This document shows positions 2,372-54,486 of a stretch of 64,000 bases of DNA, one piece after another. How positions within the stretch are numbered: the first letter of the stretch is position 1; each line of letters starts with the position of its first letter. Source of the stretch: Candidatus Poribacteria bacterium (GTDB lineage Bacteria > Poribacteria > WGA-4E > WGA-3G); NCBI GenBank assembly GCA_965198235.1, contig OZ240248.1, positions 4,000,001 through 4,064,000 on the forward strand. The letters are read 5' to 3'. The translations under genes were made by a program, and so were the position numbers. The notes under the pieces were generated by a model that worked only from the letters and a program-made list of their open reading frames with translations, had not been told where the DNA came from and made no database searches.

Positions 2372-2476
2372 GTAGGAGGGAACTCCGATTCCCGACTCTG
2401 ACCGCTGACTGCTGATGGCTGATAGCCTCTTTGTAGGAGGGGGAAACACCCAAGCAAAAACACTCCGATTCCCGAC
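2372..2476 (+). repeat. two GTAG-type REP-like units; second carries 21-nt insert
   Basis: GTAGGAGGGAACTCCGATTCCCGAC (2372-2396) vs GTAGGAGGG[GGAAACACCCAAGCAAAAACA]CTCCGATTCCCGAC (2433-2476). Confidence 0.8.
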
Positions 2477-2505
2477 CCCCTACTTCTACAATCCCACAAA
2501 TCCTT

Positions 2506-2661
2506 ATCAAGAAGGACACGGACAGCGGCATCATCAACGACCCAAACGGTTGGTTCAAGAACCCCCGCGACCTCATCACAGCAATAGAGCGCATCGTCCA
2601 CGTCAGCGTCGAATCCACCAAAATCATTGAGGCGTTGCCTTCGGAGATAATTTCGGACTAA
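2506..2661 (+). pseudogene. C-terminal remnant of type ISP (LlaBIII-like) restriction-modification enzyme
   Basis: Frame absent from the ORF track reads IKKDTDSGIINDPNGWFKNPRDLITAIERIVHVSVESTKIIEALP*, resembling the type ISP C-terminal motif (DxxSGIxNDPNxW...VSVET); no start codon. Confidence 0.7.
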
Positions 2662-2766
2662 GGAAGTCCCGGGACGCGTTTGTGTTGGGAGCGCGTCGCG
2701 GCATCTCTATTTCCAACAATCTTAACATTTACATTGGCGAGGTTAGATACCTCGCCAGCAGATAGC

Positions 2767-3273
2767 TTAGATACCCATCCGAAGAGCGACCGCGGCGAGT
2801 AGGATGAGCAGCGACACAACCCCCATCAGGCTCGATACTATTGACATCTGGGAACGGAGTGACTTCACCTCCGGCGGGAGTTCCTCAAGCGTGGGATCTA
2901 ATGTCTCAATCGCTGCTGCGAGTCGCGGTGCGAAAATCATACTGTGCAACGCCGTGAGGATAACCAGCACGAAAAAAAGCACAATTTTGATCAGGAGCGT
3001 CCGCATAAAAGCGTTGGAAATCGCGGTGGCAGAAGTGAGATCCACTGCAAAGAAGATGTTGACGATACCCGTGAAAAATAGTATACCGATACACCCCCAT
3101 ACGATAGGCTCAAAGCGTTTCCCTATTTGCATCAAGAGTTGGATACGCTGGATAGGTGGCAGGCTTTGTCTGAAATGAGGGACAATCACCATCGCTAAAA
3201 TCAGGTTGCCGCCGACCCATATAACAGCAGCAATAACGTGTAGCCAAAGCGTGAAGAGTGAGAATATATCCAT
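2767..3273 (-). CDS. CopD/DUF4149-like membrane protein
   Basis: WLHVIAAVIWVGG motif, four TM helices, FFTGIVN, LLIKIVL. Confidence 0.7.
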   Translation of the reverse strand: MDIFSLFTLWLHVIAAVIWVGGNLILAMVIVPHFRQSLPPIQRIQLLMQIGKRFEPIVWGCIGILFFTGIVNIFFAVDLTSATAISNAFMRTLLIKIVLFFVLVILTALHSMIFAPRLAAAIETLDPTLEELPPEVKSLRSQMSIVSSLMGVVSLLILLAAVALRMGI

Positions 3274-3292
3274 TTTTTATGACTCCTTTTAA

Positions 3293-3359
3293 TAGTTGTC
3301 AGTTTGGAGTGTTGGGCTTTGCTGAGCTCAACCCAACCTACGTGTTAAATTGACACCTA
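3293..3359. mobile_element. small MITE-like element (TA-ended inverted repeats enclosing a REP hairpin)
   Basis: TAGTTGTCAGTTT ... AAATTGACACCTA; same end motif recurs at ~50308 and ~51384. Confidence 0.5.
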
Positions 3360-3379
3360 CAGTGAGGGTGGAACCACAC

Positions 3380-5122
3380 CTACTCGTCGTGAGTGTTCTG
3401 AAGTTTTTCAATGTCGTTGATAACCCGGTCAGCGCGGGCGATCAATGCGTCTCGTTCGTCCGTAGACAGTAGCACAGGCGCGAATCGGTGGTAATCACAC
3501 TTCGTGAGAAGGTCAACAAGCTCGTCAAGAATAGGTTCCGAGATTCCGGCGTGCGTGCATATCTCGCGTGCTGTGTCGATATTCCGCTGTGACAAGTCGA
3601 ATGTCCCCTCAAGATGCTGATAGAGCGTATGTGCGAGTGCGTTCGCGAATGTCGTCGCAGTTTCTGTGGTCCCACTATTTGCGAGTGCTGCAAGTGCCTC
3701 ACGTGCTTGTGAAGCCGGTGTCACCGGTTCTGCCTCGGTATCCTGTGTTTTTCGCTTTCTGAGTCCACTCCCTTCGGGTATACCTGTTCCGGTCTCGGCA
3801 TTTGGTGCCCTTCGCGTAGGTATCACAAACCCGGTGCGGTACCAGAGATACCCTCCTATTCCCAATGCCGCCATCAGAATTGCCAACAAAATTAACCAGA
3901 GTAACCACGGTGAACTACCGGTCTCATCTTCAGCGGTGTCGTTGGGATTGGGACGCACAGAGACAGGGATCGGTGCCGTCTGTGTCGTTGCGTAAACCGC
4001 ACGGTTAGGATCGAAGTAGGTGTATTCGATCGCAGGGATGCGGAATGTGCCCGTTCGGGCAGGGGTTAGGGTGTATACGTAAACTCGACCTACTGGTGTC
4101 ACTCCAGACAGATTGGGTCCGCTCACCATGACCCCGGCGATTGTTGGCAGCTTGGGCGGTGTGACCGTCTGGATGTTGCCATGTCCAGAGATACGGACAG
4201 TGAGCGTTAGCGCGTGTCCAACTTCAATCCAACCGCGCTCAATTTCAGCAGAGATTTGATATTCACCGATAGCACCGTTAAAGTGAGGAGGTCTGTCTGT
4301 TTCGGGAATCGGTTGCACCATTAGCGTCAAAGGTTTGGTCTTCAAGGTTTTGTGTCCTTGCAAGAGTGGTAGTAACAGTTCAGCAGGTGCGAGAACGATC
4401 CGTCCGGTTTTCTTCGGATATAACTTATGCGTGTACTCTTCGATCCAAAATGTCCGCCCGCGAATTTGCTGTGTGTATGTCGGAACCTTTTGAAGTTTCT
4501 CAACGAAGAAATCACGGAATGTCGGGAGTCGTGGGGTTGGGGACTCGCGAGTCGGGAGGACTGTAGTGTAGAGGTGTCGGAAGGTATATGTAAATGGTGC
4601 GTTGAGATACGGTTGTGACGTATTGACCCTTGCTTCAACTTGGTGAATAGCGTTAGTTGAGACATCCACATAGGTGTCGGCACCGCTCACTCGAATTGAA
4701 CCCGGATTCGCGAAATACGGCGTACCTTGATAGGCGAAACGGATATCAGATAGAGCGAAGTCACCGATAGTTTGGGGAATTAGTTCATAAGCCCACGCCA
4801 TAGAAACCGCAATCTTGTTTGCTTCTAACCGTGGTGTCGTTTCGGAATGCAGTGGCACCGCAAGGAACGCCGGTAGGAAATTGAACTGCGGTGCTTCAAT
4901 ATGCTTGATGAAGGTCTCCCCTGAAATTGTGAGGTCCAACCTCGCTTTCTCTCCGAATTGGATGTGACGAGGACTTACCACGGCAGCGACATTGATAACT
5001 GGCTGCATGGACTCTCGCTTCACTATTCCTTGAGCGGTAGCGAGAGGTGGAAAAAGGATCAAGAGGAGACACAAGAAAACAGCCGTAGAGATTTGGTTAA
5101 GCAGTTTACCAATCTTTTTCAC
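3380..5122 (-). CDS. batD: BatD family protein
   Basis: Repeated Ig-like BatD domains, FNGAIGEY and IEYTYFDP motifs, C-terminal TM; probable GTG start at 5122 overlapping batC stop (track ORF begins 5185). Confidence 0.8.
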   Translation of the reverse strand: MKKIGKLLNQISTAVFLCLLLILFPPLATAQGIVKRESMQPVINVAAVVSPRHIQFGEKARLDLTISGETFIKHIEAPQFNFLPAFLAVPLHSETTPRLEANKIAVSMAWAYELIPQTIGDFALSDIRFAYQGTPYFANPGSIRVSGADTYVDVSTNAIHQVEARVNTSQPYLNAPFTYTFRHLYTTVLPTRESPTPRLPTFRDFFVEKLQKVPTYTQQIRGRTFWIEEYTHKLYPKKTGRIVLAPAELLLPLLQGHKTLKTKPLTLMVQPIPETDRPPHFNGAIGEYQISAEIERGWIEVGHALTLTVRISGHGNIQTVTPPKLPTIAGVMVSGPNLSGVTPVGRVYVYTLTPARTGTFRIPAIEYTYFDPNRAVYATTQTAPIPVSVRPNPNDTAEDETGSSPWLLWLILLAILMAALGIGGYLWYRTGFVIPTRRAPNAETGTGIPEGSGLRKRKTQDTEAEPVTPASQAREALAALANSGTTETATTFANALAHTLYQHLEGTFDLSQRNIDTAREICTHAGISEPILDELVDLLTKCDYHRFAPVLLSTDERDALIARADRVINDIEKLQNTHDE

Positions 5123-5735
5123 GACGATATCCACTTTTGCGCTGTTGTTGTAGTAATTTTTGCCGTAGCCTATTTTCATTCTCACTGAAACGTTCTAAGA
5201 GCCGAAGTGCCTCTGCTCTGCCAATGTTGTTCGGCTCGGTTTTCGGTGCAGTGCTTCTATTCGCCTGCTGTTGTGCGAGGTCTTCCTGCTGTTTTAAGAG
5301 TTGAAGTGCCAGTGCGAGGTTATGTTGTGTATCAGCATCTTGAGGGTCCAAGTGGAGCGTTTGCTTGTAAGACGCAATCGCGCCTGTGAGATCACCAACT
5401 TTAAATTGGGCGTTTCCTAAGTTATACAAAATATTGGACCGATTGAGGGTATCTTCAGTTTGTTCGGAGTGCCTTGAGAGTGATGCCTGAAATGTCCGTG
5501 CCGCCTCTCCAAACTTCCCCTGTCTATAGAGCGCAGTTCCCAAGTTATAGTGTGCAACAGGGTTATCAGGTTTGTCAAGCGTTGCCTGTTGAAAAGCGGC
5601 TTGCGCCTCGTCGTAGTTTCCGCGCAAATATGCCTCGTTCCCGTCATTCATGGCGCGGCTCCAACCGCCTATCCATCCGACAAGGGCAACAACGAAAACA
5701 GTCGTAAACGAGCAACAGAGCATCTTGTTCAACAT
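5106..5735 (-). CDS. batC: TPR protein, BatC-like
   Basis: TPR repeats (YNLGTALY, YNLGNAQF), Q-rich linker, C-terminal EKDW; adjacent to batD. Confidence 0.75.
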   Translation of the reverse strand: MLNKMLCCSFTTVFVVALVGWIGGWSRAMNDGNEAYLRGNYDEAQAAFQQATLDKPDNPVAHYNLGTALYRQGKFGEAARTFQASLSRHSEQTEDTLNRSNILYNLGNAQFKVGDLTGAIASYKQTLHLDPQDADTQHNLALALQLLKQQEDLAQQQANRSTAPKTEPNNIGRAEALRLLERFSENENRLRQKLLQQQRKSGYRREKDW

Positions 5736-5870
5736 AGTCTTATTATATCAGATGCTTTTGTGGTTTGCAAACAAATGTAATGGGTTATCGGTTATCGGTT
5801 GTCGGTTGTCGGGCATCAAAGAGGTTGCATCTACAAGTTGACTGGCAATGGTGTAGTTAGGAATGAGAGA

Positions 5871-5903
5871 AAAATAAAAAAGGCGCGCTTAGAAAGCGCG
5901 CCT
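5871..5903 (-). terminator. intrinsic terminator / REP hairpin downstream of paralog 1
   Basis: AGGCGCGCTT-AGA-AAGCGCGCCT stem followed by T-rich run on minus strand. Confidence 0.55.
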
Positions 5904-5922
5904 ACAAAAATAGCGACAAGTC

Positions 5923-6759
5923 TTACTTGCGTTTGATGTCCGCCCAGGTTGTTGTCAATTTCCCAGCGGGTTCGACGGAGACAACCAGCGGTTGGATTTC
6001 ATCGAAGAAGCTCTGCTTATCGGTTGCATCTTTGGGATAGATGGTAACGGCATTGTGCGTTGCCTCGTCAAAGTGCAAGTTCAGATAGGCAGCACCACCG
6101 GACTCACCGCACCGGTAAAGGAAGACGTTGGCACCCTTTTGCAATTCAACTTCAACGGTGTGAAGAATCTTTCGGGCACCACCCGTCCATCTGGTATTGT
6201 TGTACCATTTTTCACCGTTAATCCAGATTTGTGCCCAATCATCGTGTGCTGGGGACATCACGGATGTCATGTCACTCGGTGAATCAATAACGCACATAAC
6301 ATAGGTATCGATGTTATCAGCGGGACCGTCCCGGTTCATATTGTGGTCGTTCGTGACATCGAGTTCAAAGACCGTCCACGCGCGGTCCCCGCCGTGGTCA
6401 TCTCCCCATTTCATATCAATATCTTGGGTCATGAGCAAACCTTCAAGCGTTGAAAGGGAGGCTTGTGTCAGTTTACCGCCGCTCCCTTCCTCGATGAAGT
6501 CCATCGGACCGGAAACTTGGAAGGTTCCATTGTTTTCATAGTTTCCCTCGGGACCGTACCACTTACTGATCCACGTATCTACAGCAATATCATCTTGTCT
6601 AAGGGCATCACCGTTGGGGTCTGGATCTTCTAAGAGGTCGGCTTCCGCTAAGGGACCACCGGAGATCGCGTTAGCCTGTGCAAATACAAGTTGTGAACCA
6701 CTGACAATGAGTGTGAATACAATCACAATTGCGAGTGTAAAAGTATTTAATCTTTTCAT
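5923..6759 (-). CDS. secreted PA14-like beta-sandwich protein with C-terminal VEPAGKLTTTWADIK motif (paralog 1)
   Basis: Signal peptide; SPAHDDWAQIWING, ELQKGAN; conserved with paralogs 2 and 3. Confidence 0.7.
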   Translation of the reverse strand: MKRLNTFTLAIVIVFTLIVSGSQLVFAQANAISGGPLAEADLLEDPDPNGDALRQDDIAVDTWISKWYGPEGNYENNGTFQVSGPMDFIEEGSGGKLTQASLSTLEGLLMTQDIDMKWGDDHGGDRAWTVFELDVTNDHNMNRDGPADNIDTYVMCVIDSPSDMTSVMSPAHDDWAQIWINGEKWYNNTRWTGGARKILHTVEVELQKGANVFLYRCGESGGAAYLNLHFDEATHNAVTIYPKDATDKQSFFDEIQPLVVSVEPAGKLTTTWADIKRK

Positions 6760-6801
6760 GCTATATCCTATATCCTTTTTAGAGATTAAAACCTAAAGTT
6801 A

Positions 6802-6907
6802 TTAGGACGCGTTATAATGCCTCCTAAGATTCTTTAACTGGTTATATAACGTTGAAATAGCGTTCAACATTACAATTTATTATAACACCTCGACAGAAGT
6901 TTGTCAA
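6802..6907 (-). promoter_or_regulatory. consensus promoter plus two-hairpin 5' leader (copy 1)
   Basis: TTGACA(6907-6902)-17-TATAAT(6884-6879); hairpins 6845-6874 and 6802-6827. Confidence 0.7.
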
Positions 6908-7020
6908 GGGAACTATAGTTATCAGAGAGAATCACGAGCATGGGGAAATCCGAAGAAACACTCGCTCCTACAGGAAAATGGCAGTCAGTAATCAGCCGTC
7001 AATCGTCTAAACGACAACCG

Positions 7021-7076
7021 TAAAAAACAAAAAATCAAGAAAAAGCCCTTGTCTGAAAAGCATAGACAAGGGCTTT
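7021..7076 (-). terminator. intrinsic terminator of paralog 2
   Basis: 13-bp stem AAAGCCCTTGTCT/AGACAAGGGCTTT followed by T-runs on minus strand. Confidence 0.75.
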
Positions 7077-7082
7077 GGTTAA

Positions 7083-7934
7083 CTAACGATTCCGCTTAAT
7101 ATCTGCCCAGGTGCTTGTCGCCTTTCCGGTAGGATCGACTGGCAAAACACCACGAACCTCATCGAAGAAGCTCTTCTGGTTTTTCGCCTTTTGTGGGTAG
7201 ATTTCGCAGACTTTGTGCGTGTTACTGTCAAAGTGCAAATTGAGGTATGCCGCACCGCCGGATTCACCACACCGATAAAGGACGACATTCGCGCCTTTCG
7301 TCAACTGGACTTCGATGTTGTAGTGAACTATCTGCGCGCCCCCTGTCCAGGTACGATCGTTGTACCATTTATCACCGTTGATCCAAATCTGTGCCCAATC
7401 GTCGTGTGCGGGTGACATCACGGACTTCATATCCTTGGGTGCTTTTATAACACACATCACATAAGTATCGATGTTATCAGCAGGACCATCTCTATTCATA
7501 TTATCCTGGTTAGCCACATCGAGTTCAAAAACTGTCCACTCTCGGACACCGCCGTGCTTCTTATCCCAAGCCATTTTAACGGTCTGCGTCAATTTCAAGC
7601 CTTCGACAGTCGAAAGTTTGGGTTCTGTCAGTTTACCTTTGGTGCCTTCGTCAATAAGGTCTCTCGTCCCGGAAACTTGGAAGGATCCATTGTTTTCATA
7701 GTTCCCTTCGGGCCCGTACCACAGACTGATCCAATCTTTAACATCGGCGTGGTTCTCGCCCAACTGTGCAGCGGCGGCTTCCTCGCGCCAGTCCTTCTCT
7801 TTTATAGGACCACCTTTGATATTGACTTTGTGCTTCTGCGCGAATGTGAGGTGAGAAGTACTCACAACCAGTGCGAACATAATTGCCGTCGCGAGCGTAA
7901 ACTGATATACTCTTTTCATTTTTGTCTCCTCCAT
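7083..7934 (-). CDS. secreted PA14-like protein with C-terminal VDPTGKATSTWADIK motif (paralog 2)
   Basis: Signal peptide; long identical blocks with paralogs 1 and 3. Confidence 0.7.
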   Translation of the reverse strand: MEETKMKRVYQFTLATAIMFALVVSTSHLTFAQKHKVNIKGGPIKEKDWREEAAAAQLGENHADVKDWISLWYGPEGNYENNGSFQVSGTRDLIDEGTKGKLTEPKLSTVEGLKLTQTVKMAWDKKHGGVREWTVFELDVANQDNMNRDGPADNIDTYVMCVIKAPKDMKSVMSPAHDDWAQIWINGDKWYNDRTWTGGAQIVHYNIEVQLTKGANVVLYRCGESGGAAYLNLHFDSNTHKVCEIYPQKAKNQKSFFDEVRGVLPVDPTGKATSTWADIKRNR

Positions 7935-7956
7935 ATTGGATAAATAGTTAAGAGCA

Positions 7957-8062
7957 CTGAGTTAAATTACAATGTAACCCAGATTCGTTTATAGGTTATG
8001 TAATGTTGAAGCAGCCCAACATTACAATTTGCTATCATAACATTTGTAGCAAAATTTGTCAA
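7957..8062 (-). promoter_or_regulatory. promoter plus two-hairpin 5' leader (copy 2)
   Basis: TTGACA(8062-8057)-17-TATGAT(8039-8034); hairpins 7999-8026 and 7957-7982. Confidence 0.7.
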
Positions 8063-8350
8063 GAAAAAATATTGAGATTTGGAGATTTTTTCTACAAAGA
8101 GGCGGTCACCGGTCGGTGATCAGTCTGGTCAGACGTAGATTAAGAATGTATATGGGTATATGGGTGTTAATTTTCTGAATCAAGATTGGCAAGCTTCTTC
8201 GATCTTTACAGGATTCGGAGATGCCTTCTACTTTGAATAAACGAAATGGAGACACAAAAAACATAGCGAATTGTAGCACAAGATAGTGTTACAATCCGCC
8301 ATGTGTATGGATAGGGTTAAAAAACACGCCTATAGAATTTGTGAAGTGTT

Positions 8351-9178
8351 CTACTTGCGCTTAATGTCTGCCCAAGTTGTTGCCAATTTTCCGACGGGAT
8401 CAACAGCAAGAGTGCCGGCAATTTCATCGAAGAAACTCTTCTGGTCATTTGCCTTGTCTGGGTAGATATCGACCGCGGCATGCGTTTTATCGTCGAAATG
8501 CAGGTTCATATACGCATGCCCGCCAGATTCGCCACACCGATAAACGACGATATTCGCGCCTTTTACCAATTGAACTTCAATATTAAAGTCCACCTGCTGT
8601 GCGGCACCTGTCCAACGAGAATTGTTGTACCATTTTTCGCCATTAATCCATATCTGCGCGTGGTCATCATGTGCTGGGGACATCACGGATGTCATGTCTT
8701 TGGGTGCGTCGATAACACAGATAGTATACGTATCAATGTTGTCAATGGGACCGTCGCGGTTCATGTGGTGTGCATCCGCTGGATCCAGTTCAAAGACTGA
8801 CCAACCTCTCGGTCCGCCGTTGCCTTTCTTCCAATTGACATCAACAGTTTGGGTCAATTTCAAACCATCAACGGTCGAAAGTTCGGGTTGCGTCAGTTTA
8901 CCGCCGGTGCCTTCCTCAATAAGGTCTTTCGGTGCAGAGGCACCGAACCCACCGCTGTTTTCGTAGTTCCCATCGGGACCATACCACTTCTCGATCCAAT
9001 TTTTGTTCTTGGAGTGATCTTCGTTCAGTTCTCCGGCTGGGTCTTTTAACCAATCTCCCTTTTTTAAAGGACCGCCGTCAATATTGACTTTCCCTTGTGC
9101 GAATGCAAGTTCGGATATGCCCATAGCCAGTGCGAAGATAATCGCTGTCGCGAGTGTAAGTTGATAAAACTTTCTCAT
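8351..9178 (-). CDS. secreted PA14-like protein with C-terminal VDPVGKLATTWADIK motif (paralog 3)
   Basis: Signal peptide; SPAHDDHAQIWING; paralog of the two preceding genes. Confidence 0.7.
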   Translation of the reverse strand: MRKFYQLTLATAIIFALAMGISELAFAQGKVNIDGGPLKKGDWLKDPAGELNEDHSKNKNWIEKWYGPDGNYENSGGFGASAPKDLIEEGTGGKLTQPELSTVDGLKLTQTVDVNWKKGNGGPRGWSVFELDPADAHHMNRDGPIDNIDTYTICVIDAPKDMTSVMSPAHDDHAQIWINGEKWYNNSRWTGAAQQVDFNIEVQLVKGANIVVYRCGESGGHAYMNLHFDDKTHAAVDIYPDKANDQKSFFDEIAGTLAVDPVGKLATTWADIKRK

Positions 9179-9310
9179 TGAAATTTTCCCTCCTTATAGA
9201 TAGACAATTCGCAATGCAGGAACAGGCTTTGGAAACCTGTCTGTCTTGCAAAAGGTTGAGTGAACCTGAATGGAATCCGGATTCACTAAGAAAGTTCCGC
9301 GTTATTAAAC

Positions 9311-9339
9311 ATTGTAAATTTTTAACGAAAATTTGTCAA
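9311..9339 (-). promoter_or_regulatory. sigma70 promoter of paralog 3
   Basis: TTGACA-17-TACAAT on minus strand. Confidence 0.65.
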
Positions 9340-9376
9340 GTCCGTAAGAAAAAAGGGGGTGTAAAGTTAAGGAGTG

Positions 9377-11194: not shown

Positions 11195-11277
11195 GCACTC
11201 GATCTCCCGTTTTCAGATTTTATATGCATTAATCAGAGCGATCTAACTTGTTACGATTCGGAGATCGCTCCTACGGA

Positions 11278-14195: not shown

Positions 14196-14216
14196 GCGGA
14201 CTTCGGACAAATTGCA

Positions 14217-14248
14217 AGGGCAGGTCACCGCGCCTGCCCTATTTTTTT
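14217..14248 (+). terminator. intrinsic terminator
   Basis: AGGGCAGG-loop-CCTGCCCT followed by ATTTTTTT. Confidence 0.75.
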
Positions 14249-14250
14249 AT

Positions 14251-14450
14251 TATAGTAAAGCCCGAAAATATATTGACAGTTGTTCAGCGAACGAACCCCA
14301 CACGGTCTCCGCTGGCGAGGTGTTTTTGATAGGGTGTTTTTGCTTGGGTGTTTCTGTGGATTTCTGCGGATTTCTGCGGATTTCCCTGCGGATTTCCCCT
14401 AAGTATCCTCGCCTCCCCGTAATGTCCAAGTAATTGTAGATTTTACTATA
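14251..14450. mobile_element. MITE-like element with imperfect ~28-bp TIRs enclosing an expanded REP
   Basis: TATAGTAAAGCCCGAAAATATATTGACA ... TGTCCAAGTAATTGTAGATTTTACTATA; internal GGCGAGG/CCTCGCC palindrome with 86-nt repeat insert. Confidence 0.55.
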
Positions 14451-14502
14451 ACAAAACGTGGATTCAATGCTATAATTGAGATGTAGTTGTTATGCACGTT
14501 TC

Positions 14503-14548
14503 GTCTGAATCGCGGATTTGCACAGATTTATCGGATTACGCGGATTTT
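14503..14548 (-). repeat. 9-mer tandem (AATCCGCG-type) intergenic repeat ending in ATTCAGAC
   Basis: Same family at ~50220-50263, ~51448-51493, ~51552-51585. Confidence 0.65.
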
Positions 14549-14707
14549 AAGGATACTGCACATCGCTCACATAAATGCGTAACCCAAAAATAGATGATTC
14601 GGCGGCATTCGTTCACCCACGAAATTTTGGACAATTCAATGTGAAACTATGGCAATTGAAATGGAACAACCACCTAAAACCGATAACGGTTAAAGGAGGA
14701 ATTTAAA

Positions 14708-38911: not shown

Positions 38912-38936
38912 GTCGGGATTCGGAGATCCCTCCTAC
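38912..38936 (-). repeat. GTAG-type REP-like unit without insert
   Basis: Minus strand GTAGGAGGGATCTCCGAATCCCGAC, same family as 2372-2396. Confidence 0.7.
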
Positions 38937-43876: not shown

Positions 43877-43901
43877 TTATGTAGGCAGGCACAAGAGCTG
43901 G

Positions 43902-43922
43902 GGAAACACCCAAGCACAAACA
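43902..43922 (+). repeat. 21-nt insert motif copy (1 mismatch)
   Basis: GGAAACACCCAAGCACAAACA within a GTAG-initiated intergenic element. Confidence 0.75.
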
Positions 43923-43967
43923 CCCACCTCACCGAACCGCAAGGAATAATTAAAAAAGGAGTTGGAT

Positions 43968-45460: not shown

Positions 45461-45665
45461 CGAAAATCTCCCCCATAAACTGCGAACACTCTTTCCCGAT
45501 TCAATTGAAGTTATTACGGTCGACTATCGCGGTTGGAAAGGGAAAGAGAACGGAGAACTCTTGCAAATGGCTGCTGCGGAATTTGATGCCTTTGTCACAA
45601 CAGACAGAGGGATTTTGTATGAGCAGAACTTGGAGGAAATTCAACAAAATCATCAATACCAATAG
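45444..45665 (+). pseudogene. DUF5615 PIN-like toxin, 3' truncated
   Basis: RVLLDENLP, GWKGKENGELL, FVTTDR; runs into antisense hsdR remnant after EQNL. Confidence 0.75.
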
Positions 45666-47161: not shown

Positions 47162-47196
47162 TACAATTTACCTTTTTTGCATTTCCTTTCCGATTT

Positions 47197-47739
47197 TCAG
47201 GTTCGTTCACGTCTCACCTCTGCAAGTGCTTCCTCAAAATCGCGTATCACTTCCTCCTCTGGAATATCGGCAAACGCATTGTGGAAGTGTGCTACGGTCC
47301 TATCCCATTCTTCCCGAAGCCGTTTGCGCTCACTTTCAACTTCGGTGCGGAAACGCGAAACGATCCGCTGCCACTCGGTTGGTACGGATGAACTCCATTC
47401 CTGAAGGTCCGGTAGGAAAAAGACTTTCTCAGCAAAATCGGAATCTTTGACGATTTGTTTAACCTCATTGACGAGTGGACTTGACTTTTGCTGTCGTTGC
47501 TGGTCGGAATCAACAACAAAAATAATATAATCATCTTGCGCAAGGTAGTGCTGAAGGGTCTTCCTCAAGTCGCTGCTCACAGGAACCCCCTTTCTATGAC
47601 ACTTACGGAGCGCACTTCTTCCAGTTGTCCGAATAGCCAATTGTCCAAGTTGCCTAAATTTTACAAATTCATCTTCCAAAAATTTGACTGCTTGAGTATC
47701 ATAATCAGATTCCAAATTCCAGGCTCTCGCGCTTAGCAT
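47197..47739 (-). CDS. TOPRIM-like (DUF4276-like) N-domain fused to antitoxin-like tail (copy 1)
   Basis: WNLESDYD, IFVVDSD; overlaps AAA ATPase stop; paralog of 49225-49773. Confidence 0.5.
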   Translation of the reverse strand: MLSARAWNLESDYDTQAVKFLEDEFVKFRQLGQLAIRTTGRSALRKCHRKGVPVSSDLRKTLQHYLAQDDYIIFVVDSDQQRQQKSSPLVNEVKQIVKDSDFAEKVFFLPDLQEWSSSVPTEWQRIVSRFRTEVESERKRLREEWDRTVAHFHNAFADIPEEEVIRDFEEALAEVRRERT

Positions 47740-48905
47740 ACCGGTTCCTCCATGAGGTCTTGCAGAAGTCCACTATCAAAAACGGCACTGCCCATTCCGA
47801 AATCAGCGATCCAACTGTCCAATGCTTCGCGTTTACCGCGAATCTCCTCAAGATTGAGTGCTTCTGTGCCGAGTCCAGGGCGGTTGCGTAAGAGCAAAAC
47901 ACCAAGGGAATTCGATAGACTTTCAGATTTGAGGTTGTCCAAGAGTTGTGAACTATGCGTCGTGATAATCACCTGCGTTCGTTCGGCGATACGCTCAAGT
48001 ATGTACGCAATATCCTTCAGTGCACCAGGGTGTAGACTTCGCTCCGGTTCTTCAATGGCAATAAGCGGCGGTAATTCAGATTGATTGAGCAAGGTGTTAT
48101 ATGCAAGAAGACGCAATGTTCCATCAGACGCGCCCTCCAAAGGGATCGGATTCTCGTACCCTTCTAAAAGGCATAGTTTGTCATTTCCATTAATTGAGCG
48201 GTGCTCTATGCTAATATTTGTACAGGCTGCCAAAGATTCACTAACGTTACGGAAATCCTCTGGAGCATTTCCATGCCAATCTGAGAGCACTTCTGCCAAT
48301 CCGAAGCCATAAGTATCAAGTTTTGGAGATTCACGGAGTTCTTTTGTAACATGTGAAAATGTCGCTAGACGATTTCGTATGAATTCCGGTTGAAAGTCAT
48401 AAATTTCCCAACTCTTAATAAATTCTGTTAAAGTACTTGTAATTGGCTTATCCCCATAATCGCCAGCGGATTTCAAGGCGAGTTTATTGGACGTGTATGT
48501 TGTCTTATTCGTGCCGTTTTCATCTTGAACCTCACCTTTTCCGTTTTCAACCGATATGACTTTTACACCTGCAACCGATAATTCCTCGGCAACAAAAGGA
48601 TTGTTAACATCCGCCTTAAATTTCAATTCGTATATAGCTGGAGCTTCTTTCACCTCGGCTTGCAATTGGAAAGTAATGTGACTTGCTTTACCTGCCCAAA
48701 GGTAACCTTGAACTAATTCAACTGGCGGCAGTTTTTCATCAGTCATCATTGACCTGAGACTGTACAAAGCACTCAAAACATTGGACTTCCCACTCGCGTT
48801 GGGACCAACAAGAACTGTCAGAGGTTTTAGTGGAAGTATAATGTTCCGTAAACTCAGGAAGTTTTTGATATGAATTTCCTCTAAGGATGATTCCCGTTCG
48901 GACAT
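47733..48905 (-). CDS. AAA_21-type ABC ATPase
   Basis: IKNFLSL, Walker A GPNASGKSN, SDGTLR, IAIEEPERSLHP, IITTHS. Confidence 0.9.
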   Translation of the reverse strand: MSERESSLEEIHIKNFLSLRNIILPLKPLTVLVGPNASGKSNVLSALYSLRSMMTDEKLPPVELVQGYLWAGKASHITFQLQAEVKEAPAIYELKFKADVNNPFVAEELSVAGVKVISVENGKGEVQDENGTNKTTYTSNKLALKSAGDYGDKPITSTLTEFIKSWEIYDFQPEFIRNRLATFSHVTKELRESPKLDTYGFGLAEVLSDWHGNAPEDFRNVSESLAACTNISIEHRSINGNDKLCLLEGYENPIPLEGASDGTLRLLAYNTLLNQSELPPLIAIEEPERSLHPGALKDIAYILERIAERTQVIITTHSSQLLDNLKSESLSNSLGVLLLRNRPGLGTEALNLEEIRGKREALDSWIADFGMGSAVFDSGLLQDLMEEPVC

Positions 48906-48945
48906 GGGTTCCGCCTTTATGTTTGGATTAAACCTTCGGTGCTAC

Positions 48946-49200
48946 TCAGTTTTCAAGGTTCAAGAGGGCATGTGTAAACTCATCAATATTTGATGCGCGT
49001 GCGGCGACGCGGTGTAACTGATCCAGACGTTGTAGGTCGTCAATGGCTCCAAGAAAAGGCTTTAGTTTCTCTGCGACATCGGTCTGAAATCGGACCTCCA
49101 GCACTGTGAGTATCGCTTCAACAGCGTGCTGTTTCTTTCCTTGTTCGATCCCTTTCTCAGTGAAGTATTGGATGATAGAAGATTCTTGCACGATGACCTC
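48946..49200 (-). pseudogene. Rpn/YhgA-family C-terminal fragment
   Basis: QESSIIQYFTEKGIEQG...ILTVLEVRF...IDDLQRLDQLHRVA; N-terminal nuclease domain absent. Confidence 0.6.
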
Positions 49201-49201
49201 C

Positions 49202-49237
49202 GATAATGTTTGTATCATAAACAACTACCGGGCGCAT
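49202..49237 (-). pseudogene. 5' stub of a PIN toxin gene
   Basis: ATG overlapping the end of the upstream gene reads MRPVVVYDTNII, a typical PIN N-terminus, then breaks off. Confidence 0.5.
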
Positions 49238-49773
49238 TCACGATCCTCGTGGATGAGATCGTCGACAAAATTTTCACGCTCGGTTTCAGTCATCGTGTCC
49301 CAATCTAAACCGCGCGAGGCACATAACTGTCGAAACCGCGTTTCGGCAGAGTCCATACGTTTTACTCGATCGGGATCTTCAATCCCCAGATGCGCTCTCC
49401 ACAACCGAGCTTCAAGTTCCTGAACACCCAGCGCGAAAAACACTTTGCCAGCGAAATCGGGGTCCACAACGACCTGTTTAATTTGTTCAATAAGTGCTCC
49501 TGCCTTTTGTGGACAAGGACGTGCAGACACTGAACCCTTGCTATCAGCGAGGAAAATAACATAGTCATCTTGCCCGAGGTAGTACCGAATTGCCTTTTTC
49601 AGCTCGCCATTCAAAGATTCATCGCTCCCATTGGACAGCAGGAATGCTTTGCTGCCAACTGTTTGGATAGACAAATCATCAAGTTTCAAGTTTGTCGTTA
49701 AACGATCTGCCAGGGATTTGAGTGCTTCTGCCTTATAATCGGATTCCACAGTCCAGATCCTTATGCTTGCCAT
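49225..49773 (-). CDS. TOPRIM-like N-domain fused to antitoxin-like tail (copy 2)
   Basis: WTVESDY, YLGQDDYVIFLADS, DFAGKVFF, VQELEA, then unrelated tail GLDWDTMTETERENFVDDLIHED. Confidence 0.5.
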   Translation of the reverse strand: MASIRIWTVESDYKAEALKSLADRLTTNLKLDDLSIQTVGSKAFLLSNGSDESLNGELKKAIRYYLGQDDYVIFLADSKGSVSARPCPQKAGALIEQIKQVVVDPDFAGKVFFALGVQELEARLWRAHLGIEDPDRVKRMDSAETRFRQLCASRGLDWDTMTETERENFVDDLIHEDRECAR

Positions 49774-49793
49774 GTTGGCACCTCCATTGCTTA

Positions 49794-49994
49794 TCAGTCA
49801 TCCTTTATCAAGTCAGCTCGGATGTCTTGATAGTCGCGAAAATCGGTTTCGGTCCGGACAGCAGCATCCATCTCCAATATGTCCTCTAAATCTTCGAGGC
49901 GTTGTATGAGAAGTCGATATTCCTGGATTGACAAGAAAGCAGCAGTTTTTTCGCCCTTGTCATCAACAAGATACTAGGGGTTGATATCGAGCAT
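49794..49994 (-). pseudogene. RelB/Phd-like antitoxin with in-frame TAG at codon 7
   Basis: MLDINP*YLVDDKGEKTAAFLSIQEYRLLIQRLEDLEDILE...; AGGAGG RBS. Confidence 0.65.
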
Positions 49995-50021
49995 AAGTGT
50001 CCTCCTAATTACCTTGCTGCA

Positions 50022-50050
50022 ATTATACACTGTCGCGTTGCGTATGTCAA
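50022..50050 (-). promoter_or_regulatory. perfect consensus sigma70 promoter
   Basis: TTGACA-17-TATAAT on minus strand, upstream of the 49994-45630 gene string. Confidence 0.75.
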
Positions 50051-50342
50051 TAGGTGTGTAAATATTTTGTCAAACGCTTGAGTTGAAAGGGGTGTGTAAA
50101 TATTTTGGCACAAACCGTCTGTTTCTCTTGTGGGAGGGGTGTTTTTGCTTGGGTGTTTCCCCGATTGCAGAGGTGAAACCTAACTTCCGACGAAAGACCT
50201 TGAACACACAGAACCTCCAAAATCCGCGAAATTTGTGTAATCCGTGTCATCCGCGATTCAGACGAGAGACACCCCTAAATCCTACAAAGGATGGATGCAT
50301 TTTCTAAAATTGACACCTATGGATAAATATTTTACACACCCC
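50051..50342. repeat. composite repeat / MITE-like region
   Basis: GGTGTGTAAATATTTT twice and inverted AAATATTTTACACACCCC; contains 21-nt insert (50140-50160) and 9-mer tract. Confidence 0.6.
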
Positions 50343-50395
50343 AACAGCACTTATTTTCAGACGATAAGGGAACTGTGTCCACCTCTGGCATACAG

Positions 50396-50827
50396 TTAGG
50401 GTTTGTCAGTATCGAGGTCAAGTTCGGATACGTCAATCTCGCCAGAAATGAGTTTGGGAAGGAGGAGGTCACGGGTTTTTCGGAGGGCTTTATTCTGAAA
50501 GATTAGGTTCTGAATTTTGCCAACGACTTCGCAAGTAAAACTACTAAAACGTTGAATGATTTGATCTGGGGGAATCACAATCTGGTACTCGGCAAGCACG
50601 TTCCATTCAGCTCTTGGCATTTTTGATCCTTGAGCAGTCGTCGTTGCATACGCAATAAAATGTTCACTGGAAACACATGCAAGGGTTATTGCAAAACATT
50701 CATTTCTTTTGGGACGTATCACGATTGTGTCTGATGAACAAATCCCGTCTAAGGGGGCAACACCAAGATCAAGGCTTGATGTGTCTTCGGTTGTTGAGGG
50801 TAAATTCGGTTTCTTTTCGTCAGACAT
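50396..50827 (-). pseudogene. hsdS: hsdS 3' fragment
   Basis: GICSSDTIVIRP, QGSKMPRAEW, LRKTRDLLLPKLISGEIDV; first ~23 aa unrelated. Confidence 0.8.
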
Positions 50828-50850
50828 TATGAAAGCCTTATTTTGGATAG

Positions 50851-51085
50851 TTACGTTTTATTCTCTTGTGAGCATTCGGATTGCTCTGAGGTCTCATGTT
50901 CGCTTAGAGCCTTGTTCTGCTTTGATTTTAGGTTACCCTGAAATCCCACTTCGTGGGTTTCGTCCCAATAATCGGCAAGGCTATGTGTATCCCAAAATTC
51001 GCCGATTTCCTCTGGTGCTGCATTCGGAGGCGGTATTGGATCCCGTTTTTTACCTTCTTTTTTATAATTTTTTTCGCTTTTCGGA
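50851..51085 (-). pseudogene. CopG/BrnA-like antitoxin remnant, possibly with toxin 3' stub
   Basis: Startless frame KRDPIPPPNAAPEEIGEFWDTHSLADYWDETHEV; preceded by KSEKNYKKRR*. Confidence 0.55.
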
Positions 51086-51193
51086 TTAGGTAGAATCGCT
51101 ACAGTTTTCCCGGTTATTTTCCGTATAACACTATATCATATTCTCCAGAATCTTTGTCATATTGTTTCCGATGCGTTAGGGAGATTTCGCTTT

Positions 51194-51640
51194 CTACACA
51201 GATGCCGCCCTTACAAGGCTAAAGATAGGAGGAACCAACATGCTGCTATAAACATATCGTCCCTATGGGACTAAAGACAAGCAGGATGACATCTTTCAAC
51301 ACATACGACTATCGGAAAGCGTCGCGATCGGGAGATCGCTCCTACAAGTGTTTGCTATTCAGTACAGTTAGGAAACCGCACCATAGGTGTCAATTTAGCG
51401 TGTCAATTGTGCCACAGGGTAATAGGTGCGGTCGTTCAGGATTTCTTAAAATCCGCGCAATCCGCGTCATCCGCGACAATCCGTGATTCAGACGAACAAC
51501 GCTTATCAGCTATCAGCGGCAGCAGTCAATCATGAGGTGTCTATAGTCCTGAAAATCCGCGAATCCCGTGAATCCCGGTTCAGACAATTAACACCGCACA
51601 TTACCGAATTAAATACTTAATCTTCATAAAACCGCACCTA
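51194..51640. repeat. cluster of intergenic repeats (palindrome pair, REP arms, 9-mer and 7-mer tracts)
   Basis: Pair at 51194-51276; TAGGTGCGGT (51423) / ACCGCACCTA (51631) arms separated by repeat tracts. Confidence 0.65.
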
Positions 51641-51664
51641 CCAATTTCGGGGTAAGGTTTGTTG

Positions 51665-52837
51665 TTACGGATTAACGACTTTATAGAGCTCTATCCCACC
51701 GTCACGAATCGTGTAGAGCGTCAGACCTTTGAGAGGATGTCGATTTTCATCAAAACGGGAGATAGCGGACGCGCCTTGATAATCGGTCGTGTTTGCCAAG
51801 GCATTCCGAACTGCATCGGGTTCCAGCGTCCCGGCATTCTTGATGGCGAGTGCCAGCAGTGCCATCGCATCGTAACCCCACGCCGAGGGACCGTCCGGCG
51901 GTTCCATATACATCGCGGTGTAAGCTGCAACAAAGGGTACCGCATCAGGAGAGTCTATACTGAAATCTCTGGTGAAGTAAGATTCCTCTAAAGGGGTATT
52001 GTCATCTAAAGTGCCGAGGAGTTTGTCCGGTTCATCCCAACCGTTGGTACCGATAAAGGTCGCGTCAATACCCATACGCCTCGCTTGTAATGCGAACAAG
52101 GGAATCTCTGGACTGAAACCGGCGATTAAGAGGACATCCGGTGCTCCAGCTTTAATCTTTGTCAACTGCGCGGTGAAGTCTCTATCACCGTGTTGATAGA
52201 TTTCACTGGCGACGAGTTCCCCACCGAGTTTCTGGAAATTCTCTTCAAAGGCATCTGCAACAGCACCGGAATATACATCACCGAATTGACGGATTGTTGC
52301 GGCGGTTTTGGCGTTCAGTTCGTCGGGGTTCAACGAGAATTGTGCTGTCGTCGCGCCCTGAACTGAAGAGGGAGCAACCGTAATAAACACGAATTCACCG
52401 GTAGACGTTACCTTCTCACCCGATGAACCCGTGATTATGGGTCGCCGAAGCTCGGTTACGACGGGTCCGATCTGCATGGAATTCGTCGAGAGTAGGGGAC
52501 CCAAGATAGCAACAACCCCTTCCTGCTCAATGAGTGTTCTGGCAATGCGGACGCTCTCCGTCGCATCTGGAAATTCACGTTCTCCTTGATTGTCCATAAC
52601 GATAAATTCGATCTGCATTCCGAGCAGTCCGCCACTGTTATTGACTTGCGCTTTTGCGAGTTCCGCACCTTTGGTGAAATTGGGGGCAAGTCCTGAGGGT
52701 TGAATCACACCGATTTTGATGGTAGACATAGCATCTGAGGTGGACGTACCGGGTGTGATGACGTGCTGGACTCGTTCGCATCCTGAAAGAGATATGACTA
52801 AGATTGCGATAAAAAGTAGAAAAGTTTTCGTGTTCAT
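51665..52837 (-). CDS. branched-chain amino acid ABC transporter substrate-binding lipoprotein
   Basis: Lipobox LSGC, IKIGVI, DFTAQLTKIK, WGYDA. Confidence 0.85.
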   Translation of the reverse strand: MNTKTFLLFIAILVISLSGCERVQHVITPGTSTSDAMSTIKIGVIQPSGLAPNFTKGAELAKAQVNNSGGLLGMQIEFIVMDNQGEREFPDATESVRIARTLIEQEGVVAILGPLLSTNSMQIGPVVTELRRPIITGSSGEKVTSTGEFVFITVAPSSVQGATTAQFSLNPDELNAKTAATIRQFGDVYSGAVADAFEENFQKLGGELVASEIYQHGDRDFTAQLTKIKAGAPDVLLIAGFSPEIPLFALQARRMGIDATFIGTNGWDEPDKLLGTLDDNTPLEESYFTRDFSIDSPDAVPFVAAYTAMYMEPPDGPSAWGYDAMALLALAIKNAGTLEPDAVRNALANTTDYQGASAISRFDENRHPLKGLTLYTIRDGGIELYKVVNP

Positions 52838-53385
52838 TACTGATTCCTTGTTTGAAAGGGAAACTGTTCGGCAACTACAAACCGGTCATCTGTTTCAGAT
52901 GAGCGATAGATGAGACTGATCGCTTCTATTTCACACCGGACCGGTTGCCATTCGGTTTGAAGTCGCTGCTGTTCGGTCCGAAGGGATCGGTGTTGGAATT
53001 GTCCAACCGAGAGGTGTGGATGAAATCCGCCAGCAAATCGCGCCGTGTCGTCATAATCCGGAAGATGCGTCATTAGCGTGGTGTGTAACTGCACGATTTC
53101 GTCTTCGGGTTCTGGAACTAAGAACATGGTACACGACTTTCGGTGGCGGAAAGCATCAAAGCGAGCGAGTTCAACAGAGAAAGGTGATACCTGTTGTGCG
53201 GCTTGTGTGAGAGCAGGGATAACCGATGCGAAATCGCGCCGCTCCGCGAATGGATAGAGCAGCGTTATGTGTGGCATCCATCGCACGAAGTTACGGTCGT
53301 GGGTTCGGCGGATGTCTTGGATAGGAGGCTGTACGGATTCCGGTGGGATGAGGACAACGGCAGTGGTGTGGGTTTTGTTGGGCAT
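52837..53385 (-). CDS. 2H phosphoesterase (2'-5' RNA ligase family)
   Basis: PHITL and PHLSV motifs. Confidence 0.85.
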   Translation of the reverse strand: MPNKTHTTAVVLIPPESVQPPIQDIRRTHDRNFVRWMPHITLLYPFAERRDFASVIPALTQAAQQVSPFSVELARFDAFRHRKSCTMFLVPEPEDEIVQLHTTLMTHLPDYDDTARFAGGFHPHLSVGQFQHRSLRTEQQRLQTEWQPVRCEIEAISLIYRSSETDDRFVVAEQFPFQTRNQ

Positions 53386-53548
53386 AAATGAAATAATGGC
53401 TGTCAGCGGTCAGCAGTCAGCAGTCAGCAAAGAGGGATTCTTAAACGAAAACCCTCTTCTCTGAAAGCCAATGGAAACAGACGATCATTATGGAAATAAA
53501 CGAAGGTACGGTTGGGAAACCGCACCGACAGTGATTAGCAGTTAACAA

Positions 53549-54349
53549 TCATCGACCGACGGACATCCCCCATCGTCCGCCGTCTACATGTATCGTTTGC
53601 CCTGTGATGTAAGAGGCATCCTTACTGAGAAGGAAAGCGATCGCTGATGCTATCTCTTCCGGTCCACAGCGGCGTTTCATAATGCAGGAATTGATCGGAG
53701 TCTCCTCCAATTCCTTCTTACGTGCGGCAGGATCGGGTGCTCTCCCGAAGTGCATCTCTGTGACAACCCAGCCAGGTGCGACGGCGTTAACGCGAATACC
53801 GTATTCGACGAATTCATAAGCCATTGTCTTCGTGAGAGAGACCAATGCGGATTTAATCGCATCGTAGACCCATCCGCCGGGTCTGCCGAGAAAACCACCC
53901 TCTGATGAGAGATTGACGATAGCAGCCCCTTCCTGTTTCAAAAGCGGTAACAGGTGCTGCGTAATCAGTACCCAGCCTCGGAGCCCGATCGCGGTTTCGG
54001 GTTGCCAATTTCGGATCCATGCGCCGTCTTCTATTGTGCCACCGCGCGCGATAGCGGCATTATTGACGAGGATGTGAAGCGCGGAAAACTTTTCGGCGAC
54101 AGCATGCGCGGCAACTTGGACGCTTTCATCATCAGCGAGATCAACTTCTACAAAAAGTGCCTTCCCACCTGCCTCTTGGATTTTGGAGACTGTTTGATGC
54201 GCCATTTCGGCGTTGTTATCGGCGATGATGACGTGCGCGCCTTCAGCTGCGAGACGGTTCGCCGTTGCTCTGCCGATGCCGGAGGCACCGCCTGTGATCA
54301 AGGCAACCTTATCTGTAAAACGGATTGTTCCCCATGGATTTGTTTGCAT
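53549..54349 (-). CDS. SDR family oxidoreductase
   Basis: TGGASGIG, NNA, YDAIK, RVNAVAPG. Confidence 0.9.
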   Translation of the reverse strand: MQTNPWGTIRFTDKVALITGGASGIGRATANRLAAEGAHVIIADNNAEMAHQTVSKIQEAGGKALFVEVDLADDESVQVAAHAVAEKFSALHILVNNAAIARGGTIEDGAWIRNWQPETAIGLRGWVLITQHLLPLLKQEGAAIVNLSSEGGFLGRPGGWVYDAIKSALVSLTKTMAYEFVEYGIRVNAVAPGWVVTEMHFGRAPDPAARKKELEETPINSCIMKRRCGPEEIASAIAFLLSKDASYITGQTIHVDGGRWGMSVGR

Positions 54350-54465
54350 TATGTTGTTAGTCCTTTTATTTAGCCGTTAGCAATCAGCCATCGGCGGTCA
54401 GCAACCCCCCTTATCAGGGGGACAGAAGGCATGTCGTCAGGAGTCAGAAAAAATCGCGAGCATGA

Positions 54466-54486
54466 GGAAACACCCAAGCAAAAACA
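54466..54486 (+). repeat. 21-nt insert motif copy in GCGAG/CTCGC palindrome
   Basis: ATCGCGAGCATGA[GGAAACACCCAAGCAAAAACA]CTCGCTTCTAC. Confidence 0.8.

Follow-up and report, generated by a model that had tools for sequence, protein, structure and literature searches.

A 21-base repeat of Poribacteria with the behaviour of an extremely small mobile element

Results

The 21-base word in the window and its immediate hosts

We analysed a 64-kb stretch (the window; positions 4,000,001 to 4,064,000) of the 5.12-Mb contig OZ240248.1 of a Candidatus Poribacteria bacterium (assembly GCA_965198235.1), in which a 21-base word, GGAAACACCCAAGCAAAAACA (the 21-mer), recurs between the genes. This genome (G000, the own genome; relatives are given by G numbers) is 96.3% complete and has a second contig of 44 kb. 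The 21-mer was found exactly at 2442-2462 (+), 50140-50160 (-), and 54466-54486 (+), and with one mismatch at 14335-14355 (-) and 43902-43922 (+). At up to three mismatches, five matches were obtained in the window, whereas none appeared in any of 100 dinucleotide shuffles; the five copies listed in an earlier note, made from the letters alone, were thus recovered, three exact and two with one mismatch. All five lay between long open reading frames (ORFs) whose products carried ordinary Pfam domains, and their flanks were unrelated, giving five different contexts. The statement that all copies are intergenic held within the window and failed genome-wide, where in-frame genic copies exist. A search of the 64-kb window against Rfam 15 at the gathering threshold gave no match.

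The copy at 2442-2462 was a solo 21-base unit within a GTAG-type repetitive extragenic palindromic (REP) element (2433-2476), arranged as GTAGGAGGG-unit-CTCCGATTCCCGAC. An empty member of the same REP family, GTAGGAGGG-AA-CTCCGATTCCCGAC (i.e. GTAGGAGGGAACTCCGATTCCCGAC), was found at 2372-2396 (+), exactly as the earlier contrast of empty and filled versions had it; genome-wide, this family had 63 empty members and 12 filled with the unit. A second empty copy had been placed at 38912. An empty REP does lie there (38912-38936), on the minus strand and as a variant: it is the reverse complement of GTAGGAGGGATCTCCGAATCCCGAC, with GAT in the middle and GAATCCC, and belongs to a closely related subfamily. 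Two short-chain dehydrogenase genes flank the host of the solo unit at 54466-54486, a GCGAG/CTCGC REP hairpin (54453-54499) whose loop the unit occupied. The loop of another hairpin of this family (H6; ..CACGAGCATGG / .. / CTCGCTCCTACAG) held, at 6944-6960 (+), the 17-base variant unit GGAAATCCGAAGAAACA, so that the two share a host family as had been noted.

On the strand of the solo unit at 50140-50160, the next sequence was CCCCTCCCACAA, which is the right arm in the TCGGGGTTAC-AAA-CCCCTCCCACA hairpin family; 61 members of this family were empty and 3 filled. The copy at 14335 was not a lone unit but the centre of a 75-base polar array (14322-14396, minus strand), which sat in the loop of a hairpin with a 9-bp stem (host about 14309-14416). 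Five left-type units (GAAATCCGCAG..., the last being GAAACACCC) were followed in this array by two right-type units (AAGCAAAAAC and TATCAAAAAC). Its host family comprised 15 empty members, with AAT or AAA as the loop, and 9 filled members, and other repeats were present at the orthologous site in relatives. Finally, the solo unit with one mismatch at 43902-43922 joined a REP arm (43881-43901, GTAGGCAGGCACAAGAGCTGG) to the 3' part (43923-43957) of a leader element, just upstream of the phosphofructokinase start codon.

Two of these neighbourhoods were also variable in other repeats. In front of phosphofructokinase, the spacer (window 43877-43967; orthologues L130-L142) ranged from about 12 bases in G004 to about 360 in G018 and carried a differing set of small repeats in almost every species (13 relatives), with the native GGAGTT..ATG ribosome site retained. 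At the orthologue of window positions about 14200-14700 in G018 (L172, G018:C1:3567064-3570462), eight 43-base units with the hairpin TCGGGGTTACAAACCCCTCCCACA were arranged head to tail, and sister species held a single copy of the 43-base TCGGGGTTACAAACCCCTCCCACA unit at the orthologous site.

Unit sequence, abundance and array grammar

On its A/C-rich strand, the 21-mer reads directly as 1.5 copies of the 14-base period AAACACCCAAGCAA, and none of its six frames contains a stop codon. Neither inverted ends nor a fold was detected (minimum free energy 0 kcal/mol, z 0.46), which agrees with the earlier description of an insert without inverted ends; the absence of a target duplication, claimed with it, was confirmed by the clean insertion in a kinase gene described below. 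The unit had the left end (Y)TGRR-GAAAY.CCC and the right end (AAG/TAT)CAAAAAC(A), and its constant 19-base core, GAAACACCCAAGCAAAAAC, occurred in 94 exact copies in the own genome. The 21-mer itself had 228 matches there at up to three mismatches (40 exact and 35 with one mismatch), and the commonest 10- and 12-mers genome-wide were CCCAAGCAAAAAC-type words. Seeding with nine-base words yielded 265 sites of at least 19 bases; after merging, 249-261 arrays were obtained, which were 19-165 bases long and covered 9,570 bases in total.

The arrays were built from sub-units of 10-14 bases in a strict polar order. Left-type units (L) were AAATCCGC, AAATCCAC, AAACACCC, and AAATACCC, each preceded by AG or AGG; right-type units (R) followed the pattern (AAG/TAT)CAAAAAC(A)CCC; and a bridging unit X (CAATACGC-AG) switched an array from the right type back to the left type. 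The grammar (L*R*X)*L*R* fitted 246 of the 249 arrays, among which 131 were single LR units and LLRR was the commonest compound form. The 75 solo cores were spread over 32 flank clusters, and identical arrays of 58 and of 65 bases were each found in 2-3 flank clusters, the identical 58-base arrays at no fewer than (at least) 5 loci. The proposal that a single fixed oligonucleotide is written into the genome was accordingly replaced by that of a modular family with a strict grammar, whose whole 58-65-base arrays recur in different contexts.

Empty and filled members of host families

Hosts were classified at the 204 sites whose flanks were not themselves units of the family, referred to here as a small dispersed repeat (SDR) family. 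The flanks fell into 77 left and 72 right types, and these occurred mostly in fixed pairs, which indicates that the hosts are coherent repeat families; the same numbers substantiated the claim that the unit enters unrelated small repeats. Both empty and filled members were present in at least 12 host families, among them REP hairpins and a leader element of about 100 bases, and the empty/SDR-filled counts among twelve families included 63/12, 13/14, 125/24, 74/18, 61/3, and 15/9. Many hosts were GTAG-headed REP hairpins, and in four families the apical three to six loop bases were replaced by the unit. In one family, it interrupted the 5' arm of a 15-bp stem, and in another it stood at the foot of the hairpin. 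The leader element, which ends in CCGAACCGCAAGGAAAATTAAAAAATG and precedes many start codons, had two further insertion points. Nesting was seen as well: at 7 loci, which represent at least 4 contexts, the exact centre of an inverted unit held a forward one.

A perfect flanking stem of at least 5 bp was observed at 21.5% of the 265 arrays and in 16.2% of a control made of mismatched flank pairs. A location in hairpin loops is therefore only partly true, and we rejected the loop rule as a general law; it is valid for some host families only. The earlier view of REP structure as the target stands in so far as REP hosts are common, and falls short because units also occupied stems, hairpin feet, their own inverted copies, and unique coding DNA. 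In three copy-free congeners and two genomes of the sister genus, the GCGAG hairpin contained no alternative loop inserts.

The leader element was further characterised as a repeat in its own right. Its consensus is ...GTAGCCCGTAATGAAATGGAGGGCGGATCTACGGAAAGGCACGTCAAAGTCCAAACCCACCTCACCGAACCGCAAGGAAAATTAAAAAATG (window 43923-43957, partial; genome-wide, e.g. G000:C1:991400-991520), and two of its words were frequent (AACCGCAAGG, 206 occurrences; GAACCGCAAGG, 329 matches at up to one mismatch). It lies directly 5' of many start codons and provides an AAGGA ribosome-binding site, and there seems to be co-variation at its paired positions. A portable leader and ribosome-binding-site cassette is one possible identity, a structured 5' untranslated region another.

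Junctions

For junction statistics, each of 44 flank clusters was represented by one solo unit. The three bases that precede GAAAC (positions -1 to -3) were purines in 43 of the 44. The base following ...AAAAAC was A (30) or C (14), position +2 was C in 42 clusters, and C or T came next. Because the kinase gene described below shows CTC to be target sequence, the units are set immediately 5' of a C-rich word (A^CYC). In several hairpin hosts, AAAC was supplied by the target as well, and the A^CYC bias could reflect either target choice or microhomology.

Units inside genes

In the own genome, units or arrays lay inside genes at G000:C1:5063801-5063821, 4768746-4768804, 1415072-1415130, 2775703-2775761, 3036369-3036388, and 2450171-2450190. 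The in-frame hosts included a histidine kinase, a HEAT/TPR protein, an adenylate cyclase-AAA-TPR protein, and an LVIVD-repeat protein, to which the insertions contributed 7-21 residues (e.g. ETPKQK or GKSAEETPYQKPQAKTPSKN). An identical 58-base array was in frame in three unrelated genes.

The histidine-kinase gene was examined in 14 orthologues, 10 of which were empty (..GAACGCAA-CTCTCAAG..) and 4 filled. In G040 the gene reads GCAA-21 bases-CTCTC and in the sister clade GCAA-CTCTC, with an ambiguity of one base and no target duplication; G004 carried a 45-base array with the reading frame kept. In a tree of this gene (2,350 columns; strong support on 10 of the 11 inner branches), the filled genomes were successive outgroups of two empty clades, the filled state required at least 3 changes, and none of 200 bootstrap trees was compatible with a single change. 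This pattern calls for one old gain followed by at least two losses that left no scar, or else for three to four hits at a single nucleotide position.

Another in-gene site held decayed insertions in six relatives (five solo units and one array) and a pristine 58-base array in the own genome. Since this array is identical to those at other loci of the own genome, old sites are overwritten or refilled.

Gain, loss and slippage at orthologous sites

The unit family is gained and lost at otherwise conserved sites. At the 54466 site, the orthologous hairpin was empty (loop TAAAA) in G002, G001, G005, and G013, in the last two of which it was tandem (2 copies in G005 and 3 in G013), and the hairpin was absent in G014 and G006. 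In a leader hairpin upstream of a neighbouring gene, G081 was empty (..AACAA-CGG-CGCAGG..), its close relative G006 contained a 26-base unit, and the same orthologous leader element in G014 and G018 carried an inverted unit at another position. Flank clustering and orthologue comparison, both suggested in the earlier note, thus revealed empty and filled states within the genome and at orthologous sites. The two flanks of the 50140 site were never found together in relatives, and at the 2442 site the spacers of relatives were too divergent for alignment.

A slippage step was caught between G006 and G081, which are 95.7% identical over 3.4 kb. They differed by one 14-base unit between AAACACCC repeats, and this was the sole internal indel longer than one base in the 3.4 kb.

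Distribution and independent data

The exact 19-base core was counted in 121 genomes of the phylum Poribacteria. Besides the own genome (94 copies), it was present in 41 of 44 genomes of the own genus (2-93 copies; three, G073, G089, and G117, were core-free), in 2 of 32 genomes of the sister genus (1-3 copies), and in 0 of 44 genomes from the rest of the phylum. The exact 21-mer was found in at least 116 stretches of the species collection, and the titles among the 80 matches listed were all Poribacteria or unclassified metagenome bins. It was exactly conserved across species whose flanking genes differ by 12-20%.

Contigs of an RNA library from another study spanned the copies at 43902 and 54466; such contigs cannot show transcription. 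Short-read contigs of two other runs stopped at the border of the 50140 copy, which is normal at a repeat; because contig joints near this copy were short-sided, they were disregarded as unreliable. An assembly or adapter artefact was rejected on the basis of the bridging contigs from the other study, the core in 41 of 44 genus genomes, and the decayed in-frame orthologous copies.

Two repeats of other kinds were recorded. Within the window, the summed contig depth in public runs rose at 50923-51756 to 24,000-97,000, i.e. 100-1000 times that of neighbouring bins; other small repeat modules, such as AAACCGCACC...GGTGCGGT hairpins, are densely packed in this interval and are common to many other loci or organisms in the samples. 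Outside the window, the own genome had a repeat of about 36 bases with ATCTCGATTACGAGAT and GAAACGAAAAGCATC (56 occurrences by 16-mer counts), which is probably a CRISPR array.

Candidate enzymes

The earlier note had named reverse transcriptase and the REP-associated tyrosine transposase (RAYT) among the possible writers. An RVT_1 profile had no match in the 96.3%-complete own genome, whereas control genomes scored, so that mediation by a reverse transcriptase was not upheld. Six Y1-transposase genes were detected in the own genome, three IS200-like and three RAYT-like; two of the IS200-like genes were near-identical and had identical upstream DNA. The RAYT-like genes (about 160 aa, MANTYTQLYVHIVFSVKGR...) are at G000:C1:606794-607286, 1898762-1899242, and 3853633-3854113. 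Each was flanked by GTAG-headed REP hairpins, GCACTCCAGCGGAGTGC or GCACCCCTACGGGGTGC, adjoining TATGTCTATAGA, and no 21-mer arrays were found in these flanks.

RAYT occurred in 43 of 60 congeners. Several copy-rich genomes lacked it and the copy-free G073 had it; a correlation of RAYT with copy number was therefore rejected, and the earlier suggestion of RAYT-mediated insertion was not supported. The wider Y1 family was present in 60 of 61 genus genomes, and the sole genome lacking it was also copy-free; being near-universal, the presence of Y1 does not discriminate. Small GIY-YIG nucleases were likewise rejected, with four hits and no array within 4 kb of them. A master copy beside an enzyme gene, for which the earlier note had proposed to look, was not found: the eight longest arrays were all in ordinary hosts and none at RAYT flanks.

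Discussion

In one genus of sponge-symbiont bacteria, the 21-mer has the behaviour of a mobile element that would rank among the smallest known: it comes and goes seamlessly in small repeats, in its own copies, and in genes. Slippage lengthens the repeat, and its copies within one genome are kept uniform. Since the element encodes nothing, the machinery that handles it would act in trans. We consider it an even matter whether the 21-mer belongs, as its minimal member, to a genus-specific, ultra-small, non-coding, non-palindromic mobile repeat family of the SDR type that is moved in this way. A trans-acting, scar-free enzyme is favoured because one nucleotide position changed state at least 3 times and whole arrays recur unchanged, and on these grounds we lean slightly towards both insertion and loss being catalysed by a scar-free site-specific enzyme. 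A single-strand HUH/Y1 transposase is the only candidate that we can name, and a doubtful one. In the strongest form of this reading, the linear 21-base word, which has no hairpin, would be the complete substrate of a site-specific writer and eraser that works scarlessly at A^CYC in repeats and genes; this we think unlikely.

Under the favoured scheme, existing copies would be the source of new units. A unit or a whole array would be placed seamlessly, without target duplication, and usually just 5' of the C-rich word A^CYC, which in the own genome would most often be the 3' arm of a REP hairpin and at other times the centre of another copy or ordinary coding DNA. Arrays would afterwards grow and shrink by replication slippage at 10-14-base periods, and fresh copies could overwrite old ones.

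Several observations weigh against an enzyme of this kind. Host amplification inflates the counts; in one family, all 14 filled copies carried a base that was absent from all 13 empty ones. Many junctions were unclean, with three to six loop bases replaced and a variable left filler (CTGG, TTGAG, CATGG, or TAGG), and the right junction shared AAAC or CYC with the target, which fits microhomology-guided copying too. The pattern in the kinase gene could alternatively be due to allele replacement by recombination and not to seamless loss. In the own genome, no chromosomal strand bias of the units was seen; cumulative GC skew gave no usable origin or terminus, and the replication origin was not placed. 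Orientation relative to flanking genes was unbiased as well (63 co-oriented and 81 opposite, with crude ORF-based gene calls). At 43902, 50140, and 54466, no 21-base polymorphism or indel was detected in public runs, for which only contigs were used. As for the candidate enzymes, RAYT was missing (E <= 1e-20) in G081 (93 cores), G103 (67), G095 (65), and G108 (55) and present in the copy-free G073; Y1 was near-universal in the genus, G073 itself having 5 Y1 hits; and the unit has no hairpin, though known Y1 transposases need one.

The main rival is microhomology-guided template switching. It dispenses with a dedicated enzyme: template switching at the replication fork, or short-patch gene conversion from existing copies, would copy units over a few bases of microhomology, stalling at REP hairpins would promote the process, and slippage would complete it. 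Much of the junction evidence is as this would predict, namely that the right junction has AAAC or CYC in common with the target in most host families, that loop bases are replaced and not simply split, and that the variable left filler travels with the unit. The old site overwritten by a pristine array inside the same boundaries, the observed 14-base slippage step, and the lack of an enzyme correlating with copy number speak for it as well. However, ectopic templated insertion with 1-4 bases of homology is rare, and here at least 70 flank contexts and 58-base arrays at no fewer than (at least) 5 loci have to be accounted for. The insertion in the kinase gene had an ambiguity of 1 base only, and chance would not readily produce either two seamless losses or 3-4 hits on the same nucleotide. 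Furthermore, sister species with the same REP families hold only 0-10 copies. We regard template switching as a rather unlikely explanation of the whole.

Solo units and arrays in unique coding sequence, with empty orthologous sites, already contradict the reading in which the unit is not independently mobile and, after an old entry into a few repeat families, was spread by host amplification, tandem duplication, and module shuffling. This host-only spread would agree with the pairing of left and right flanks into coherent host families, the diagnostic base that marks the filled copies of one family as a single lineage, the tandem amplification of a host to 8 copies in G018, and the copy at 43902, which joins halves of two host families. 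It is at odds with an orthologous leader element that is empty, loop-filled, or filled elsewhere in the opposite orientation depending on the species, and with the distribution of the 75 solo units, 44 of them with non-repeat flanks, over 32 flank clusters. We judge it very improbable.

The word might instead be a selected functional site, such as an array bound by a protein or an unstructured A/C-rich RNA segment, that is repeatedly recruited into loops and leaders. Its exact conservation across species differing by 12-20% in flanking genes would suit such a role, as would a 10-14-base periodicity near one helical turn, the copy in the phosphofructokinase (pfk) leader, and the two copies covered by RNA-library contigs, with the reservation that contigs cannot show transcription. 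Yet congeners range from 0 to 94 copies, three having none; orthologous sites are mostly unconserved, and copies decay freely in some species; and gene orientation shows no preference, in-gene copies being on either strand. A selected site is, in our estimation, highly unlikely to be the explanation. Reverse transcription from an RNA master, which could have produced polar, templated-looking arrays, is hardly credible given that the own genome has no RVT_1 match, controls having scored, and that the longest arrays are in the same host families as the others, with no special master locus.

Elements so small test how short mobile DNA can be, and the SDRs, the only described precedent, have posed the question of mechanism since 2008. 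If the writer and eraser reading is true, the 21-mer would be the smallest self-sufficient transposition substrate known, and its enzyme would belong to a class, or represent a new mode of Y1/HUH action, that reads a linear single-stranded word and not a hairpin. The family offers clean material: a unique gene that contains the bare 21 bases and has empty orthologues, a site with at least 3 state changes, and a simple array grammar. Because more than 40 congeneric genomes, several of them complete, carry 0-94 copies, a presence/absence search for the responsible gene is feasible. The units also have practical effects: they remodel 5' leaders and the DNA between genes, give proteins additional peptide loops, and disrupt the assembly of sponge-symbiont genomes from short reads.

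Comparison with known systems

REP and REPIN elements are reportedly tied to RAYT (Y1 HUH) transposases in work by Ton-Hoang in 2012. REP elements are hosts here, and REP/REPIN elements resemble the 21-mer in being small, non-coding, of high copy number, and presumably mobilised in trans (Bertels & Rainey 2011, PMC3116915). The 21-mer differs from them in that it is non-palindromic, lacks GTAG, does not flank RAYT genes, and has a copy number independent of RAYT.

IS200/IS605 elements and their miniature derivatives, the palindrome-associated transposable elements (PATEs), make no target duplication, are lost without a scar, and have a one-sided preference for a short sequence; their subterminal hairpins are read by the transposase, and they show strand bias. 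The 21-mer has no target duplication and at least 3 gains or seamless losses at one site, and its A^CYC bias may be either a one-sided target preference or microhomology. It differs in having neither subterminal hairpins nor strand bias.

Bacterial interspersed mosaic elements (BIMEs) have a conserved motif between inverted palindromic units, and a conserved non-palindromic 21-mer module between two palindrome arms is reminiscent of this. Those of E. coli are described as mosaic intergenic repeats (PMC2884548). As in minisatellites or variable-number tandem repeats, the number of units shifts by slippage (the 14-base step between G006 and G081; arrays of 19-165 bases); slippage accounts for array growth only, not for dispersal. 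Unlike both BIMEs and minisatellites, the 21-mer module has more than 12 unrelated families as hosts and is also found within its own copies and within genes. The Rickettsia palindromic elements are said, after Ogata in 2000, to lie in frame in genes as palindromes of 100-150 bases. Small repeats tolerated in frame are a shared trait, whereas the 21-mer is short and unstructured.

The closest precedent is the SDRs that Elhai et al. reportedly described in 2008 as SDR1-8 in Nostoc punctiforme and other Nostocaceae; these are said to be nested, to have no coding capacity, and to move by a mechanism that was not known, and SDR4-6 are said to share a hairpin. The 21-mer family would be a variant of that kind. 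The earlier remark that it was not recognised as a described element was right in that we found no literature on Poribacteria repeats or on the 21-mer word (a 13-base core matched only an unrelated oyster paper), and needs qualifying in that the cyanobacterial repeats are a precedent for the kind. Nostocaceae SDRs are called 'some 20 bp long' elements that 'might be mobile', with HIP1 as a possible insertion site of SDR5 (PMC5861425, PMC3116915, PMC2884548), and PMC5861425 reports no SDR outside Nostocaceae among HIP1-rich cyanobacteria. The likeness extends to a unit of about 20 bases (here 19-21) with many dispersed copies (94 exact cores), to a position inside other repeats whose hosts exist empty and filled, and to units nested in units (7 loci). 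The two differ in phylum, and the 21-mer has no fold as against the hairpin reported for SDR4-6; SDR1-8 were compared by description. Relative to those repeats, the new features of the 21-mer family are a polar grammar of 10-14-base units, arrays that move as a whole, in-frame genic copies with empty orthologues, and restriction to one genus.

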